The notes under the pieces: model-generated
What the model was told of the DNA's origin: nothing
Seen by the model: only the letters and a program-made list of their open reading frames with translations
The model's database searches: none
Program-made: the position numbers and the translations under genes
Shown: positions 10,910 to 53,125 of the stretch, one piece after another
How the letters are laid out: each line of letters opens with the position of its first letter
Position numbering within the stretch: the stretch's first letter is position 1
DNA from: Candidatus Roizmanbacteria bacterium
Lineage (GTDB): Bacteria; Patescibacteriota; Microgenomatia; UBA1406
Reading direction: 5' to 3'
DNA length: 64,000 nt
NCBI GenBank assembly: GCA_024654535.1
Contig: JANLHL010000038.1
Location: 105,581-169,580 of the forward strand

Positions 10910-12634
10910 ATGAAGCGCTTTATTTGGGTAATTCCCATTGTGCTGGTAATTATACCATTACTGCGTCTACAGTACTTTCCGATGCACGATGCACAGCATA
11001 TTGCTCGGCTTTTTGTTTTCGATCAGGCACTTCGTCAAGGAGCGTTGTATCCTCGATGGGTGGAAGGATTAGGGTTTGGTTTTGGTTACCCACTGTTCAA
11101 TTTTTATCCCCCACTCATCTATTACGTAGCCGAAGTGTTTCACCTAATAGGTTTCGGGCTTGTGTGGTCTATGAAGATGATGTTAATAGTAGGGTTTACA
11201 CTATCTTTCTGGGGAGTATATGCCCTTGTTTATAAAAAGACGAAGGACGTATATTCGAGTATGTTAGGTGGTTTTATGTACCTTATGGCACCGTATCACG
11301 CTGTTTTGGTATACATACGTGGCGCGTTTGCAGAATTTTTTGCATATGCGATTATTCCTTGGGTATTTGTAGGCTTTGAAATGATTCAGGCAAATGGTGG
11401 AATAAGTTTATTTTCAGCTGCCTTTGCACTCTTGATTGTGAGCCATCCGTTAATTGCGTTTCCTTTTGTGCTCTTATTTATAGGTTATTTTATAGGTATA
11501 TTCGTGATTTCTCTTCAAAAGCGGGTATTGATTACAAAAACGGCTATCGGAAGCTTACTAGGGTTGGGTTTGTCCGCTTTTTTTTGGATGCCTTCCATGT
11601 TCGAACGTCATTTTACTTTAGTAGATAAAATCCTTACACATGGCTTAGCAGACTATAAAATGCACTTTCTCTATATACGTCAGTTGCTCTATTCGCCGTG
11701 GGGTTACGGTGGTTCAATTTACGGATTAGAAGACGGCATGTCTTTCCGTGTTGGTGAAGTACATATTATTCTTGCCATCATTGCAACTATCACATTGGTA
11801 TTTATATTTTTTCGTAAAAAAACACAGAGATTGGACATTTTGAAGATATATATATTTTTGGGCATGGGTTTGTTGAGTGCCTATCTCACTATATTTAAAT
11901 CTCAGTTTATTTGGGACTTTATCAGCTATCTTTGGTATTTGCAGTTTCCTTGGAGACTTTTAACGTTTGTAGTATATTTTTTGTCTGTCGGTGTCGCATT
12001 ATGGGTATATCTGTTGAAAAAAATGAATCGCATAATAATTGTTGTTATTGCAGCACTATTCATCTATGTACTCTATACTCCGCTATTTGAACCCGCATAC
12101 TATATAACAGGTCAAGATAACCACTATATATCGAAGAATCAATTGACCTGGGAGGTGAGTAAAACTTCATATGAATTTATGTACAAGGATATTAAACCGA
12201 AGCAGTCTGGACTATTCTTTTCATTTCCTTTAGAAAAAAGTCAATTACCTACGACACTCGTTAATGCAAAAAATAATGTTGACATAAGAATACTGACAGA
12301 TAAAGTCACTATGAAAGAAATATCAGTACGCACACAAAGCAAAACTACATTAACTTTAAATAGATCCTATTTCCCTGGGTGGAATGCCTATATAGACGGC
12401 GTTCCGGCAACGGTACTGCATAGCGATTCTGTACAGCGTATGTTTATCGATGTTCCGAAGGGTACTCACACTGTATTATTTAAATTCGAAACAACAACTA
12501 TTCGTAAAATATCTTGGTTAATCACATTCATATCTTTACTATTCTGGCTGTACTTTGTACAGATAGAGACCGTGTGGGCCAAAAGGTTTGGGATATTTTT
12601 TCACAAGAGAAATAGGCCAATCAGTGGGAAATGA
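10910..12634 (+). CDS. large polytopic membrane protein, COG5617/YfhO-like GT-C candidate
   Basis: ATG at 10910 (MKRFIWVIPIVL...); the track start at 10874 would overlap the divergent flippase. Motif QYFPMHDAQHIARLFVFDQALRQGALYPRW...GYPLFNFYPPL matches the '6-pyruvoyl-tetrahydropterin synthase-related' membrane protein family. Soluble beta-rich C-terminal domain. Confidence 0.6.
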   Translation: MKRFIWVIPIVLVIIPLLRLQYFPMHDAQHIARLFVFDQALRQGALYPRWVEGLGFGFGYPLFNFYPPLIYYVAEVFHLIGFGLVWSMKMMLIVGFTLSFWGVYALVYKKTKDVYSSMLGGFMYLMAPYHAVLVYIRGAFAEFFAYAIIPWVFVGFEMIQANGGISLFSAAFALLIVSHPLIAFPFVLLFIGYFIGIFVISLQKRVLITKTAIGSLLGLGLSAFFWMPSMFERHFTLVDKILTHGLADYKMHFLYIRQLLYSPWGYGGSIYGLEDGMSFRVGEVHIILAIIATITLVFIFFRKKTQRLDILKIYIFLGMGLLSAYLTIFKSQFIWDFISYLWYLQFPWRLLTFVVYFLSVGVALWVYLLKKMNRIIIVVIAALFIYVLYTPLFEPAYYITGQDNHYISKNQLTWEVSKTSYEFMYKDIKPKQSGLFFSFPLEKSQLPTTLVNAKNNVDIRILTDKVTMKEISVRTQSKTTLTLNRSYFPGWNAYIDGVPATVLHSDSVQRMFIDVPKGTHTVLFKFETTTIRKISWLITFISLLFWLYFVQIETVWAKRFGIFFHKRNRPISGK

Positions 12635-14041
12635 ATCCCGTTCAGCAAATACGAAATAGACAGGGTATTTCTTTGCAAGATCTTGTGCATATATAAAATC
12701 ATCGCTTTTTACTGGCCAGCGTGGTTCATAATGTATGGGTAGGGAAGTATAGGCCGTATATATATCAAACGCATATGGCAATAGCCCAAACGTACCTTCT
12801 GTAAAAACATAAATATCTTCCTTTGCGGACTGTTTTTTAAATCTTGCAACCATATCATTGATACCGTATCCAGCTGTGTACCCCTCTATATATTGTCCTC
12901 TATCTATTGGCGGGAAAGGTATCTTTGATGGTGAAAAAAGTATAGCCCAATTCATATAAGCTGTAGAAAGTAGAAATGCAATGATAATATATATTCCTAT
13001 TTTTTTTTGCCCAGCAAGATATATCAAGCCAGTAAAAAATGGAATAGTAAGAAATATAAGATAGCGAGGAAATATCACCATAGCAAGACAAGCAATTGTA
13101 AGAAAAGGAATGAAGAATGATGTAAATAATAACAAGACAAGCCCAGGCCTTTTCTTATACAAAAGCAACAATCCTACCATTCCAACAATCGGCCCAAGTA
13201 GCGCACTTTCTGAAAGAGCATACAGTGGTATGATGCGTAAGTTATGTAGTAGAGGATTAAGTGGATGAGAAAGAAACTGAGGAATACTTAAAATAAACGT
13301 TGTATTTTTTTGCTCTATAAACTGCATAAAGGGAGAAAGCCTTTGTATATTATACAGAACGAGTGACAACGCAATGACGATGGCCATTAATGTATAGTAG
13401 GTTAAAGCTCGTGTTTTGAAATCTTTTTTTTCGTACATAAAAAATGGCAACAAAAAGAGTAAGGGGAAAAAGACTCGTATTGTCGACTTACTCAACAGTG
13501 CCATACCTGCGATCAATCCGAACACAAGGGCGGTGTCAAGTCGTCTATATTTCCAAATAACTATACCACCAATCAAAAACCATATGAAAAACCCATTCAC
13601 CAATGCATCGACCAATGCCATTCGTTCGTAAAATAAAAAATAGGGATTGAATATGTAGAGTAAGGCACTTATATATGCATAGCGTTTCCCAAAAAGAAGT
13701 GCAATAAGTGTAAAAAATCCGGCAAATGAGAATATTCCCGATACGACACCGAACATACGTCCTGCGAAAAGAGGATCTTCAAATAGCTTCAGTAGAGGAA
13801 TGGTTGCCCAAGTCTGCAATGGTTGTCGCCCATCCGTGAGAGATACGAACCGCCAGCCGGCATCCTTCCATGCTAGTTTTGCCCAGTGTATATAAATAGC
13901 CTCGTCGGTAAAAATAGGCAATTTGGTGAGATTTATTACTCTGGTAGTAATAAATATACTAAGCAATAAAATACAGAATAGAACGTCTTGCTTCGATATG
14001 CGCTTTTTGATGCTAGAAATAATATCGAGAATATCAATCAT
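12539..14041 (-). CDS. PMT_2/ArnT-family membrane glycosyltransferase
   Basis: 500 aa. Motif LPIFTDEAIYIHWAKLAW...GRQPLQTW (acidic first loop) and about 11 TM helices. ATGA coupling to the upstream gene. Confidence 0.7.
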   Translation of the reverse strand: MIDILDIISSIKKRISKQDVLFCILLLSIFITTRVINLTKLPIFTDEAIYIHWAKLAWKDAGWRFVSLTDGRQPLQTWATIPLLKLFEDPLFAGRMFGVVSGIFSFAGFFTLIALLFGKRYAYISALLYIFNPYFLFYERMALVDALVNGFFIWFLIGGIVIWKYRRLDTALVFGLIAGMALLSKSTIRVFFPLLFLLPFFMYEKKDFKTRALTYYTLMAIVIALSLVLYNIQRLSPFMQFIEQKNTTFILSIPQFLSHPLNPLLHNLRIIPLYALSESALLGPIVGMVGLLLLYKKRPGLVLLLFTSFFIPFLTIACLAMVIFPRYLIFLTIPFFTGLIYLAGQKKIGIYIIIAFLLSTAYMNWAILFSPSKIPFPPIDRGQYIEGYTAGYGINDMVARFKKQSAKEDIYVFTEGTFGLLPYAFDIYTAYTSLPIHYEPRWPVKSDDFIYAQDLAKKYPVYFVFAERDSFPTDWPISLVKKYPKPFGPHGLYLYKVQPE

Positions 14042-37007: not shown

Positions 37008-37214
37008 ATGGCAGTATCATTCTACGATGTAAAAAACAAAGCTTCAGTCGAAGTAGCAGATGACAAACTACGCAAGACAAAGTATGAAAGAACGACCAAA
37101 TCTGGTTCTGTGCAAGTACGATATGCACTTCGCGGGACACTTGCAGATGGTCGCAAGGTCACAAAATTTGTGAGCAAAGAAACATGGGATCAACACAGTG
37201 TTCCTATGGAATAA
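37008..37214 (+). CDS. small basic protein (68 aa), unknown function
   Basis: Strong SD (AAAGGAG, about 10 nt upstream of the ATG), followed by a 10-bp stem-loop. Lys/Arg-rich sequence that looks beta-strand-like (MAVSFYDVKNKASVEVADDKLRKTKYERTTKSGSVQVRYALRG...). Sole plus-strand gene in a minus-strand context. Confidence 0.5.
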   Translation: MAVSFYDVKNKASVEVADDKLRKTKYERTTKSGSVQVRYALRGTLADGRKVTKFVSKETWDQHSVPME

Positions 37215-37226
37215 GATTGAATAATA

Positions 37227-37255
37227 CGTGAAGGCCTGCCTTTGGGGCCTTCACG
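37227..37255. terminator. GC-rich stem-loop between convergent transcription units
   Basis: cgtgaaggcc (37227-37236) pairs perfectly with ggccttcacg (37246-37255) around a 9-nt loop. It starts 13 nt after the stop of the 68-aa gene. There is no clean U-tract, so function as an intrinsic terminator is uncertain. Confidence 0.4.
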
Positions 37256-37438
37256 AGAAGCTAGACAATCTTTAATTTTTGTTTGTTTGGTCAGTTTTCG
37301 GAAAGAATAAAGAATGGGCCAATTCTCGTTCCTCGAAAAGTAGCTGTCCGTCTTCGCCCCATTTATGATGCTTGAACGTGGCTTCGGCCGGACACGAAGA
37401 GCTTCTAAACTCACATTCGTTCGCTAAGAATCTCTAGT

Positions 37439-37457
37439 GTCGGGATGGCCGGACTTG
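37439..37457 (-). repeat. exact 19-nt copy of the tRNA-Pro 3' end (T-loop 3' half to discriminator)
   Basis: The plus-strand string gtcgggatggccggacttg occurs at 37439-37457 and inside the tRNA gene at 37547-37565. The adjoining aaccgg of the T-arm recurs at 37531-37536. Confidence 0.85.
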
Positions 37458-37544
37458 CTCAACTGACAGTTTACGAACGTACGTAAGTAATTACTGTCAG
37501 TTAGTCCGCCGAAGCTTGAGCGAAGGCGGAAACCGGTTGTTTGT

Positions 37545-37621
37545 TGGTCGGGATGGCCGGACTTGAACCGGCGACCTTACGCACCCCATGCGTACGTTCT
37601 AGCCATCTGAACTACATCCCG
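37545..37621 (-). tRNA. tRNA-Pro (anticodon GGG), CCA encoded
   Basis: Minus strand: CGGGATG TA GTTC AGATGGCTA GAAC G TACGC ATGGGGT GCGTA AGGTC GCCGG TTCAAGT CCGGC CATCCCG A CCA. All four stems are perfect. Confidence 0.9.
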
Positions 37622-48638: not shown

Positions 48639-48687
48639 CTTTTCAGACTATCCGGTTTTTTTTTATCGATTGAGTTATAATCCCACT

Positions 48688-49893
48688 ATGTCAGCTTCAA
48701 TAATAACGTGTCCGCATTGCCATAAAGAAATAGAACTTTCCCAAGCTTTTTCTCACCAGCTCGAGGATCAATATAAGAATAAATTCGAACAGGACAAGCA
48801 AGCGTGGGAAAAAGAAAAAGAACAGCTGCAAAAAAACCTGACCCGCCAGACAGAGCAAATCAAAAAAGAGATGTGGGAAAAGGCAAAAGTTGCTGCTGGT
48901 GATAAAAATAAACAAGAGCTTTCAGTCCTTAAACAAGAGCTTCTTGATCGTGATAAAGAGCTTGATGAAAAAAGAAAAGAAGAATTGGAACTGCGCAGAG
49001 AAAAAAGAAGACTTGAAGACGAACGGAAAGAACTGGAGCTTACCGTTGAGAAAAAATTAGATACAGAACGCAGACAAATTCAAGAGGATGTGGCCAAACA
49101 AATACGGGAAGAAAATAAACTGAGGAATATGGAGCGAGAAAAACAGCTCGAAGATGCTCGGCGTGCGAATGAAGATTTACGTAGAAAACTTGAACAAGGA
49201 TCACAGCAGATGCAAGGAGAGGTATTAGAGCTGGAATTGGAAGAAATGCTTCGAAATGAATTTGTCTATGATGAAATCAACGAGGTGCCAAAGGGTGTAC
49301 GTGGTGCAGATGTTCTTCAGATAGTACGTGATAGAAGTGGTCGGAAATGTGGCACGATTGTATGGGAATCGAAGCGTACCAAAGCATGGACAGATTCATG
49401 GATAGCAAAGTTGAAAGAAGATCAGAGAGCGGTAAAAGCAGAGCTAGCTGTGATTGTCAGCAACATATTACCAAAGGATATTAAGTATTTTGGGGTGAAA
49501 GATACTATTTGGATATCAAGTTACGAAACTGTTCTTGCAGTATCTGCTACTCTGCGTTCAACTCTTATTAAAGTTGCTGCAGCTCAACAATCTCAGGTTG
49601 GAAAAAATGAAAAAACGGAGCTTTTATATCAGTATTTAACAGGTACAGAGTTTAAGCAACGAGTTGAAGGTATTGTTGAATCGTTTATTCAGATGAAAGA
49701 TGATTTAGAACGTGAAAAACGTGCCTTTACAAAGATGTGGGCAAAGAGAGAAAAACAAATAGAACAAGTAGTACACAATACTGTTGGAATGCATGGCGAT
49801 TTGCAAGGTTTCATGGGTGCGTCATTACCAGAGATTCGCAATTTAGAACTGCCGAGTGGAGAAGAGAGTATGGATGAAGATAAGCTGTTTTAA
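48688..49893 (+). CDS. DUF2130-like protein: N-terminal zinc ribbon, long coiled coil, C-terminal PD-(D/E)xK-like domain
   Basis: ITCPHCHKEIEL, then about 170 aa of E/K/R/L-rich coiled coil, then GADVLQIVRDRSGRKCGTIVWESKRTKAW (D...ExK-like). ATG at 48688; the track start is TTG at 48670. Confidence 0.62.
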   Translation: MSASIITCPHCHKEIELSQAFSHQLEDQYKNKFEQDKQAWEKEKEQLQKNLTRQTEQIKKEMWEKAKVAAGDKNKQELSVLKQELLDRDKELDEKRKEELELRREKRRLEDERKELELTVEKKLDTERRQIQEDVAKQIREENKLRNMEREKQLEDARRANEDLRRKLEQGSQQMQGEVLELELEEMLRNEFVYDEINEVPKGVRGADVLQIVRDRSGRKCGTIVWESKRTKAWTDSWIAKLKEDQRAVKAELAVIVSNILPKDIKYFGVKDTIWISSYETVLAVSATLRSTLIKVAAAQQSQVGKNEKTELLYQYLTGTEFKQRVEGIVESFIQMKDDLEREKRAFTKMWAKREKQIEQVVHNTVGMHGDLQGFMGASLPEIRNLELPSGEESMDEDKLF

Positions 49894-52303: not shown

Positions 52304-53125
52304 ATGTCGAAGATACTTGTCATGAAATCGGATGGAACAACAGAACATTTTAGCGCAAATAAGGTTCGACATGCTATAGAACGTGCCGGTATTCCTGCGT
52401 CAATGAGCGAGCGGGTTTTGGACCATATTAGGAGTATTGCCTATCAGAATATTACGACAACCGAGATTCATAGACACATTGTTGAATTTCTATCGTATTC
52501 ATATCCTCAAGGAGTATGCCGATTTAACTTAAAAAATGCCATAATGCGTCTTGGTCCGACCGGGTTTCCATTCGAGCGTTTCGTGGCACGGTTACTTGAA
52601 AAGCATGGGTACAAGACAGAAGTTGATATATATGTCTTGGGTCAGTGTGTGAAACATGAGGTAGATGTTTTAGCAACGAAAGAAAACGATACGTATTTTG
52701 TAGAGTGTAAGTATCATAATCATAGCGGCATTCGATCAGATATAAAAACAGCACTTTACGTGTATGCGCGCGGTGAAGATTTGAAGCAAGGTAAAAAAGG
52801 TACTGACGGCACGTACGAACCGTGGCTTTTTACCAACACTAAGCTTACAGGAGATGCGATAGCATTTGGTGAATGTCGATCGATGCGTATCACTGGTTGG
52901 GGATACCCTACACACAACAATTTGCAGGATATGGTAGAAGAAAAAAAATGTTATCCCATAACTGTACTTTCTTCTATTTCACTTATTCACATGCAACAGT
53001 TGCTGAAGGAAAACATTGTGATGATACAGGATATTACCCAAAGTCCTGCTGTTTTAGAAACGTTAGACATTGGATATATACGACGACATGCGCTTTTGGA
53101 AGAAATTGAACAATTGAGCGCTTAG
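52304..53125 (+). CDS. ATP-cone domain fused to Mrr-like (PD-(D/E)xK) restriction-endonuclease-fold domain
   Basis: The N-terminal region KILVMKSDGTTEHFSANKVRHAIERAGIP is an ATP-cone. The middle region FERFVARLLEKHGYKTEV...HEVDVLATKENDTYFVECKYH carries the Mrr_cat D...ExK core. Confidence 0.7.
   Translation: MSKILVMKSDGTTEHFSANKVRHAIERAGIPASMSERVLDHIRSIAYQNITTTEIHRHIVEFLSYSYPQGVCRFNLKNAIMRLGPTGFPFERFVARLLEKHGYKTEVDIYVLGQCVKHEVDVLATKENDTYFVECKYHNHSGIRSDIKTALYVYARGEDLKQGKKGTDGTYEPWLFTNTKLTGDAIAFGECRSMRITGWGYPTHNNLQDMVEEKKCYPITVLSSISLIHMQQLLKENIVMIQDITQSPAVLETLDIGYIRRHALLEEIEQLSA

Follow-up and report, generated by a model that had tools for sequence, protein, structure and literature searches.

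In a 64,000-nt stretch of contig JANLHL010000038.1 from a Candidatus Roizmanbacteria bacterium (the window; positions are those of the window unless another contig is named), the intact gene for tRNA-Pro(GGG) is followed by a displaced copy of its own 3′ end, and this copy is split by a discrete insert of 73 nt. On balance, the insert is probably one copy of a family of small (60–108 nt), non-coding, two-hairpin insertion elements of Microgenomates in the candidate phyla radiation (CPR), non-autonomous and HUH-like, that lies here in the displaced tRNA end; we hold this reading with modest confidence. The insert is apparently mobile and points to a tRNA-loop-specific insertion mechanism. The copies of the family have constant, discrete ends, flanks colinear with tRNA, a target motif and hairpins with compensatory changes; they occur at several tRNAs and in distant genomes, and they differ locally in presence and absence. 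To our knowledge, no gene-less element of this size has been described that inserts at a single, precise phosphodiester bond in T-loops or D-loops across several tRNAs and several CPR lineages, and a full-text literature search returned no comparable tRNA-loop insertion element.

Arrangement of the tRNA-Pro locus

The tRNA-Pro gene (37545–37621, minus strand; identified by ARAGORN and by Rfam RF00005 with 62 bits) encodes its CCA (37545–37547) and has the T-loop TTCAAGT. On the minus strand it is followed in order by the 8-nt spacer ACAAACAA (37537–37544), the inner piece CCGGTT (37531–37536; AACCGG on the plus strand), the 73-nt insert (37458–37530), the 19-mer CAAGTCCGGCCATCCCGAC (37439–37457), and more non-coding sequence. 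The inner piece corresponds to tRNA positions 50–55, that is, the 5′ strand of the T-stem with T54 and T55, and aligns colinearly with the tRNA when the insert is left out. The 19-mer corresponds to positions 56–74, has no CCA behind it, and exactly repeats 37547–37565 within the gene. Read on the plus strand as GTCGGGATGGCCGGACTTG, it occurs exactly twice in the window, at these two places, and found zero matches in shuffled sequence with 3 mismatches tolerated. The spacing of the two copies is 108 nt, and the 108-bp repeat unit contains no gene. The plus strand of the displaced end finishes in GGACTTG, which is the target motif immediately 5′ of the insert. An initial annotation of this DNA had described a split copy of the tRNA-Pro end 8 nt downstream of the gene, and all of its coordinates were confirmed to the base.

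The six bases of the inner piece are weak evidence by themselves; comparison with the other copies indicates that the piece is real, because it matches the cognate tRNA in the tRNA-Pro and tRNA-Leu copies and is 10–12 nt long in relatives. Judged from the sequence, the insert appears to sit in a dead copy of the tRNA-Pro 3′ end (positions 50–74), 8 nt behind the intact gene. From this placement in the displaced copy it follows that the 19-nt direct repeat would be the old gene end pushed outward, while the intact gene would carry a replacement end.

Structure of the insert

On the tRNA strand, the window insert reads 5′-TCC..GGA (hairpin 2)–CT–hairpin 1–GAG-3′. All 10 copies that we collected share its ends and have on one strand the anatomy 5′-TCC..GGA (hairpin 2, with a variable interior)–YT–hairpin 1–GAR-3′, with total lengths of 60–108 nt. 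In the window, hairpin 1 (37458–37504, minus strand) has a 10-bp stem AACTGACAGT/ACTGTCAGTT (37461–37470 and 37493–37502), an AA bulge, an inner TTAC(G)/(C)GTAA extension, and a variable apex; it is extended by two pairs between the linker CT and the AG of the terminal GAG, with the G bulged. In hairpin 2 (37505–37530, minus strand), the CCGCC...GGCGG stem lengthens to TCCGCC/GGCGGA around a 14-nt loop. The predicted DNA fold of the insert had −16.9 kcal/mol (z = −5.4 versus shuffles), in agreement with the earlier description of a double hairpin consisting of a 10-bp stem with inner extension and a CCGCC/GGCGG stem.

DNA folds of all copies gave two abutting hairpins with z of −3.9 to −7.1, about equally on both strands. 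Hairpin 1 comprises 17 pairs (10-bp stem, TTAC/GTAA, and 2–3 outer pairs); across nine distinct aligned copies these were 98% paired and almost exclusively Watson-Crick. Four pairs were altered on both sides, and the pair between linker and end was C-G in four copies and U-A in five. None of the shuffles or slid registers approached the pairing score of hairpin 1. Depending on the copy, its apex is 11–24 nt long and its arms lie 22–34 nt apart. In hairpin 2, the basal TCC/GGA is kept family-wide and the interior varies freely. The insert ends TCCGCC.. and ..CAGTTGAG are not mutual inverted repeats; hairpin 2 starts at the first base of the insert, and hairpin 1 stops 1–3 nt short of the other end.

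Copies at other tRNA genes

We scanned metagenome contigs with an exact, context-free pattern of hairpin 1 only (AACTGACAGTAATTAC N5-35 GTAAACTGTCAGTT). The scan returned seven loci, which together with one variant from a relaxed pattern gave 10 copies overall. The insert lies downstream of tRNA-Pro in the window and in the contigs L005 and L001, downstream of tRNA-Leu(GAG) in L093 (two tandem copies) and L096, and downstream of tRNA-Val(CAC) in L097. At tRNA-Leu(TAG) in L094/L099, one insert is downstream and one upstream, and at tRNA-Leu(CAG) in L095 it is upstream. Every scanned copy adjoins a tRNA fragment, with an intact tRNA adjacent. The insert was the sole match between the window and L093–L097 in blastn, and the proteins of L099 are about 45% identical to those of the window.

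The downstream copies are flanked on one side by the 5′ strand of the T-stem and TT, and on the other by CAAGT and the remainder of the tRNA 3′ end. Both flanks match the neighboring tRNA; in the tRNA-Leu copies, the inner piece reads GGAGGTT. In the upstream copies the insert is inverted, and on its outer side stand the first 18 nt of a tRNA-Leu, reverse-complemented and ending at a break in the D-loop. An nhmmer profile of the 10 copies detected no additional diverged copy in about 400 kb of sequence, a scan of viral contigs with three patterns gave 0 matches, and blastn against phages and plasmids gave none. The initial annotation had proposed looking for the insert in related CPR genomes, and it was found in distant Microgenomates genomes, at tRNA-Leu and tRNA-Val loci, with one copy in the window. 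Of the three readings that the annotation gave without choosing, that of a miniature non-autonomous element targeting T-loops is favored by the T-loop copies at tRNA-Leu and tRNA-Val together with the inverted D-loop copies in unrelated genomes.

Most tRNA genes in the window and in the CPR loci compared do not encode CCA. It is encoded in the insert-bearing tRNA-Pro genes and in the tRNA-Leu of L093, which has a proximal module, with the tRNA-Val gene (L097) as the exception; the same tRNA-Leu in L096, where the proximal module is missing, does not encode it. The idea of a retro-copy of mature tRNA was dropped: the proximal copies encode CCA at tRNA-Pro and the L093 tRNA-Leu but not at tRNA-Val (L097) or in L094.

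Insertion site and polarity

When the insert was deleted in silico, nine of the 10 copies gave tRNA sequence without a gap. The insertion points were 55|56 in the T-loop and, with the insert inverted, 18|19 in the D-loop, and no target duplication was present at the insert's own ends in the 10 copies. The junction was always ..GAR|CA(A/G/T)(G/T/C)TCC, which is GGANNTG| on the opposite strand, and the inner end was always GGA|. GGANNTG preceded the leading hairpin-1 end in all 10 copies, as GGACTTG in seven and as GGAGTTG, GGAACTG, and GGAAATG in one each; the tetranucleotide at the insert end was thus CTTG| in 7/10, then GTTG, ACTG, and AATG.

GGACTTG is the bottom strand of the TTCAAGTCC T-loop and corresponds to insertion at 55|56, where the bottom strand of the T-arm reads ..GGCCGGACTTG|AACCGGC... 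GGAACTG and GGAAATG are the top strand of tRNA-Leu D-loops and correspond to insertion at 18|19 in inverted orientation. Relative to the tRNA these D-loop copies are reversed, yet their polarity to the motif is unchanged. Because GGANNTG always precedes the leading hairpin 1, the polarity is set by the DNA motif and not by tRNA transcription. The idea that the insert entered partial tRNA copies which other elements had left earlier was considered and dropped, as no insert-free 3′-end duplicate was found among the other tRNA genes in the loci compared, which are a small sample.

Orthologous tRNA-Pro loci

Syntenic contigs of two related lineages were reached via homologues of the DUF3467-like gene upstream of tRNA-Pro. 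The flanking genes of L001 have 95% protein identity and about 77% DNA identity to those of the window, and those of the L005–L014 group have 88% protein identity and 79–87% DNA identity. A scan for DUF3467 neighbors in genome contigs yielded 77 Microgenomates loci in which tRNA-Pro was not syntenic, and thus no orthologous loci; among homologues of the 68-aa neighbor, L100 was the sole syntenic locus.

The initial annotation had recommended comparing the tRNA-Pro locus of sister genomes, and in both L001 and L005 the arrangement downstream of tRNA-Pro was the same as in the window. Between the window and L005, tRNA-Pro was identical at 77/77 positions, the hairpin stems at 42/42 (12/12 in the stems of hairpin 2), and the tRNA-derived flanks at 25/25. 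The loops were identical at 17/26 positions (9/14 in the loop of hairpin 2) and the region beyond the 19-mer at 16/21. The displaced 19-mer was 19/19 identical in both L005 and L001, though the sequence beyond it diverges. The linker and the end have changed together, being CT..GAG in the window and TT..GAA in L005. In L001, the interior of hairpin 2 is unrelated but still forms a two-tier hairpin (CCCGAT..ATCGGG), and the interiors in L097 and L094 likewise still form hairpins. The inner piece is 10 nt long in L005 and 12 nt in L001, with one mismatch each. The spacer differs from that of the window in both length and sequence in L005 and L001; alignments show that its sequence differs among lineages, with an ACAAA(T/C)A-like motif recurring.

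The tRNA at the tRNA-Pro locus of L001 (2850–2926) has the anticodon GGC and is called tRNA-Ala by ARAGORN, while its sister contigs L003 and L004 have GGG. In the L001 tRNA, a C-to-A change breaks a T-stem pair, and the displaced 19-mer retains the unmutated sequence.

Sequence variation around the insert

Several loci differ in ways that bear on movement. L093 carries an extra proximal module next to tRNA-Leu that is absent in L096, the outer module being common to both. The hairpin-1 apex of L001 resembles that of L093, at tRNA-Leu, and not those of the orthologous window and L005 copies. L100 (276–705) and L001 (2440–2940) are identical at 389 of 390 positions across a stretch that starts at the 68-aa gene and takes in the displaced end and both hairpins, and are unrelated starting 5 nt past the insert's inner end; because their identity stops there, the inner end of the insert marks a structural breakpoint within one population. 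In L003 (322–396 and downstream), the upstream gene and the 5′ part of the tRNA are as in L001, and the tRNA-Pro 3′ end is foreign from about position 52 (GCCAGTTCGAGTCTGGCCACCCCGAC). This foreign end gives an A5.C68 mismatch and a T-loop TTCGAGT without the CTTG target, and an M2-like element (see below) follows. Four contigs from independent assemblies (L002, L004, L012, and L015) end inside tRNA-Pro, 109–134 nt upstream of the DUF3467-like gene, which suggests strain heterogeneity downstream of the T-arm.

A more extensive rearrangement was found in L094 (11640–11925, equal to L099 12157–12442), where the first 18 nt and the last 19 nt of an old tRNA-Leu flank two inverted inserts. The flanked segment holds a complete, different tRNA-Leu(TAG) with the acceptor stem GTCAGAG/CTCTGAC. 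The displaced 5′ and 3′ fragments, GGGCGAG and CTCGCCC, pair with one another in the acceptor stem and not with the present tRNA-Leu. Hairpin 1 of the 3′ insert is a variant in which two pairs show compensatory change. These sequences suggest that the old tRNA-Leu has been hollowed out.

A second, decayed hairpin element, M2 (37256–37438, minus strand), begins directly after the displaced C74 in the window and was recognized by homology to a segment of about 150 nt in L093/L096 and L003. Its homologues lie behind tRNA-Leu in L093 (about 1110–1225) and L096 (230–345) and behind tRNA-Pro in L003 (about 150–321), and the base immediately before M2 is C74 of a tRNA or of a displaced tRNA end. M2 forms a long hairpin whose outer stem covaries (AGAGATTCT/AGAAGCTCT; AGAATTTCT/AGAAATTCT; ATCTCAGT/ACTGAGA), with a conserved core TTA(A/G)CGAG..GAGTTT and then a piece resembling a T-loop and T-stem (TGTCCGGCC in the window). 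M2 is absent from L001 and truncated in L005, and in the alignment it accounts for the approximately 150 extra nt of the window relative to both. A 74-aa open reading frame (ORF; 37190–37414, minus strand) overlaps the decayed M2; it has no Pfam match, is absent in relatives, and is most likely not a gene.

Recombinases and other enzymes near the copies

In a Pfam scan of 53 of the 55 window ORFs of at least 110 aa, we found no integrase, transposase, or reverse transcriptase, nor any HUH (Y1 TnpA or Y2) transposase, a result confined to the window. Xer, serine-recombinase, and GIY-YIG proteins from the other loci had no tblastn match in the window. The absence of an integrase, already noted in the initial annotation, thus holds for the entire window, and in none of the 10 copies do the repeats enclose a recombinase.

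Enzyme genes do adjoin some of the other copies. An Xer-like tyrosine recombinase is encoded in L094 (12069–13043), 140 nt beyond the 3′ module. In L095, where the inverted insert is on the 5′ side of tRNA-Leu(CAG), an ORF for a large serine recombinase (11837–13006; Recombinase and Zn_ribbon_recom) reads into the 3′ half of this tRNA. GIY-YIG ORFs (Pfam PF01541) lie between a displaced tRNA 5′ fragment and an intact tRNA in L093 (1464–1715 and 1915–2148; tRNA-Leu) and in L029 (1055–1309; tRNA-Asp). The old tRNA-Asp copy of L029 is cut after GAGGGTT, at the same T-loop position as the window insert, and the GIY-YIG cassette of L093 opens with two TC..GA hairpins reminiscent of hairpin 2. Because the neighbors vary from locus to locus, the insert has no constant protein partner.

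Small tandem hairpin repeats occur in L093 between tRNA-Val, tRNA-Phe, and the second GIY-YIG gene (about 2320–2480 and 2150–2245). They include a unit of about 55 nt with TCGCGTACGACGCGA and repeated GGTGCTAGCGCGTATAACGCGCCACCGCATAGAATGAC, and this tRNA cluster is crowded with short palindromic elements.

Likeness to known systems and proposed mechanism

Double-hairpin elements of mitochondria exist as a comparison system, and miniature hairpin-ended insertion elements are already known; the novelty here lies in the tRNA-loop specificity and in the replacement of the gene end. PATEs of Haloquadratum are terminal-only derivatives of IS200/IS605-type transposons, down to 52 bp in length, which have no terminal inverted repeats, carry palindromes near both termini, make no target duplication, and lie with fixed polarity beside a short (4–6 nt) targeting sequence at one end (PMC3119063). 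The insert resembles them in being non-coding by its size, in lacking terminal inverted repeats, in its palindromes at or near both ends, in the absence of target duplication, and in its one-end targeting sequence with fixed polarity. It differs in that no related IS605-type transposon or TnpA/TnpB was found among the window ORFs, in that its hairpins are mutually unlike and reach the very ends of the element, and in its apparently low copy number. Whereas PATEs are dispersed, all known copies of the insert are in tRNA-derived DNA, with the target loop within a hairpin-forming tRNA arm.

Rolling-circle elements of the IS91 family insert beside 5′-CTTG or GTTC without duplication, have subterminal palindromes, and form a single-strand circle; 1–14% of events run past the end and take adjacent DNA along up to a surrogate end, and mini-derivatives need about 82 + 89 bp of end sequence (PMC13181058). 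The insert is similar in making no duplication, in having CTTG directly beside one end in 7/10 copies, and in its palindromes at both ends. It differs in being 73 nt long without a transposase gene, in that its GTTG, ACTG, and AATG do not all retain the T at position 2 reported for IS91, and in having an inner end GGA| instead of CTCG or GTTC. The insert is thus set beside IS200/IS605 and IS91 by anatomy alone and is not a demonstrated member of either.

From this anatomy we infer a trans-acting HUH-type enzyme, a single-stranded DNA intermediate, and a one-ended step. The enzyme, acting on a single strand, would nick after GGANNTG in the T-arm or D-arm loop of a tRNA gene, and the element would enter DNA in one polarity, directly 3′ of GGANNTG and with no target duplication. 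The mobile unit would have hairpin 1 at one end and, at the other, the nearest following CTTG, which lies in the neighboring intact tRNA's T-loop; because one-ended events of IS91 carry adjacent DNA along, such a unit could bring a spare tRNA 3′ end with it. It would contain the tRNA 3′ end, the spacer, the inner tRNA piece, and the insert, and on entering another T-loop it would rebuild the gene and displace the old 3′ end outward, which is the arrangement seen. CTTG in the intact tRNA's T-loop is indeed where the 108-nt unit ends, although the intactness of that tRNA entails this anyway. In L093, the L093a spacer holds a diverged copy of the natural tRNA-Leu flank, as expected for co-mobilized donor DNA, and a one-ended step would account for it.

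Several points weigh against a mobile HUH-like element. No autonomous copy and no candidate enzyme were found, and the proposed HUH mechanism is argued from anatomy alone. The two hairpins of the insert are unlike each other, whereas IS608-type ends are alike. Members of PATE and REP families are usually dispersed in many copies, whereas the present family has about 10 known copies and a single one in the 64-kb window; counted per contig, the numbers were one in the window and two in tandem in L093. One-ended transposition reproduces the arrangement but not its first origin at each new tRNA species, and the model does not specify the replacement of an entire gene that L094 requires. The invariant stems and flanks shared by the window and L005 (67 positions) indicate purifying selection or concerted evolution acting on a vertically inherited copy, and such invariance fits a function for the host or as RNA as well as it fits a still-active element. 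Finally, a 7-nt motif with two free positions cannot alone explain why all copies are located in tRNA DNA. Recognition must include more than the motif; the confinement of the known copies to tRNA DNA, despite so short a motif, suggests that the hairpin of the T-arm or D-arm is perhaps part of the target.

A bolder version of the proposed mechanism, which we consider distinctly unlikely, would make the insert the working end of a tRNA-gene-specific mobile system. Its enzyme would read the folded T-arm or D-arm in single-stranded DNA and cut at the elbow positions 18|19 and 55|56, the element, through its spare tRNA end, would rebuild each essential gene that it enters and could spread through tRNA genes as a drive, and the 19-mer with the inner 6–12 nt would be a built-in recognition or guide segment rather than dead DNA. 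A scaffold and guide resembling omega-RNA was considered and dropped, as the 19-mer is on the side of the target motif and not on the TnpB-type guide side, and no constant motif precedes it in both contexts. Half-sites of a large-serine-recombinase attP and an integron attC-like site were also dropped, as the junction sequences do not fit.

If the insert is mobile, some enzyme recognizes the hairpin loop of a tRNA gene with single-base precision, which would constitute a new site-specific, and possibly structure-guided, DNA insertion activity. This would explain why assemblies of these genomes break inside tRNA genes, the layered hairpin remnants at tRNA flanks in small CPR genomes, and the swaps of tRNA 3′ ends between lineages, as in L003; it also offers annotators a recognizable signature.

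Alternative explanations

tRNA genes are classic landing sites of integrases, and gene-less derivatives of tRNA-integrated elements are known as CIMEs. The insert might be a gene-less integrase-type mini-element, that is, a bare integrated attP resembling a very small cis-mobilizable element; we regard this as possible but unlikely. A recombinase acting in trans would join the T-arm and 3′ end of the tRNA (attB) with an element whose P′ arm is the tRNA 3′ end and whose P arm is hairpins 2 and 1; the 19-nt repeats would be attL and attR, and successive integrations would push older copies outward. The attL/attR footprint raised in the initial annotation does explain the 19-nt repeat, which runs from T-loop to 3′ end, a span seen at many tRNA integration sites, with the intact tRNA proximal and the displaced end distal. 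Partial tRNAs and tandem accretion beside tRNAs are documented for tycheposons (bioRxiv 10.1101/2020.12.28.424599). Comparable features here are the stacked older remnants further out (M2 and L093, the latter with two tandem modules of which the proximal one is missing from L096), the foreign 3′ end installed at the tRNA-Pro locus of L003, and the tyrosine and serine recombinases adjoining the copies in L094 and L095; frequent excision would explain the intact distal 19-mer. What the footprint leaves unexplained are the 6–12 further tRNA bases on the far side of the insert, the D-loop copies, and the missing crossover sequence. The partial tRNA (44/50–74) is split at 55|56, whereas an attR should be contiguous; the D-loop copies show the same split anatomy, inverted, at 18|19; and the two junctions of the insert have no crossover sequence in common. 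The 108-bp unit is gene-less, with no recombinase in the window or between the repeats, and hairpin-1 arms that lie 22–34 nt apart, depending on the copy, are ill-suited to a binding site in double-stranded DNA.

A functional structured RNA co-transcribed with tRNA-Pro, which had also been suggested, seems quite improbable to us. It would be a 3′ trailer mimicking the T-arm and acceptor and carrying two hairpins; its role might lie in processing, in stability, or in decoy binding, or it might be set free as a small RNA. If true, the locus would instead hold a new conserved tRNA-linked RNA module. In a promoter and terminator scan there was no match, and no terminator separates tRNA-Pro from the insert; the RNA fold had z = −3.0; and the strong constraint that the window and L005 show in their stems and tRNA-like flanks, with drifting loops and a compensatory C-G to U-A change, speaks for this explanation. 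It is disfavored by polarity, which tracks the DNA target motif: the copies upstream of tRNA-Leu are on the strand opposite to tRNA transcription and keep the same polarity to the motif and the displaced fragment. In addition, hairpin 1 is nearly all Watson-Crick and folds equally on both strands, the same element stands beside unrelated tRNAs in distant genomes and also in tandem, and the acceptor 3′ strand is without its own 5′ partner. The Rfam search that had been proposed gave no family beyond tRNA: among the Rfam 15 covariance models, only the tRNA itself matched, both at the gathering score and at E up to 10.

That the locus is a chance duplication or deletion scar, neither functional nor mobile, is hardly credible, even with a single copy in the window and no enzyme nearby. 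The same insert of 60–108 nt is found at the same positions of other tRNAs in other genomes. At the orthologous loci of two other lineages it is present with constrained stems and flanks, diverged loops, and compensatory changes, by which a neutral scar is excluded; the earlier reading as a scar or decayed element is contradicted by the same observations.

Free-standing homing-endonuclease genes enter a gene while bringing a replacement gene end. Their cassettes resemble the present loci in the displaced gene-end fragment beside a restored gene, in the tRNA-Asp of L029 cut after the T-loop TT, and in the small hairpins that accompany the GIY-YIG ORF in L093. They differ in that the window insert has no ORF and the window no GIY-YIG gene, and in that the proximal and distal 19-mers are equal, with no obvious immunity of the restored site. 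Phages with tyrosine integrases show tRNA-dependent lysogeny (PMC10865867). This resembles L094 and L095, in which a cut, older tRNA-Leu encloses another tRNA-Leu that is complete and different; in the window, the tRNA is rebuilt and not replaced.

Additional features of the window

The downstream region of tRNA-Pro is limited on its outer side by a 10-bp GC-rich hairpin (37227–37255, an inverted repeat with no strand assigned) behind the convergent 68-aa gene. This hairpin is kept in L001 and L005 with compensatory changes and was not called in the terminator scan. Farther along the window, one ORF encodes an ATP-cone with an Mrr-type restriction endonuclease domain and a DUF2130 protein is encoded nearby (52304–53122 and 48670–49890, both plus strand). 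Positions 1 to 45 kb are mostly occupied by a large cluster of glycosyltransferase and sugar-nucleotide genes.

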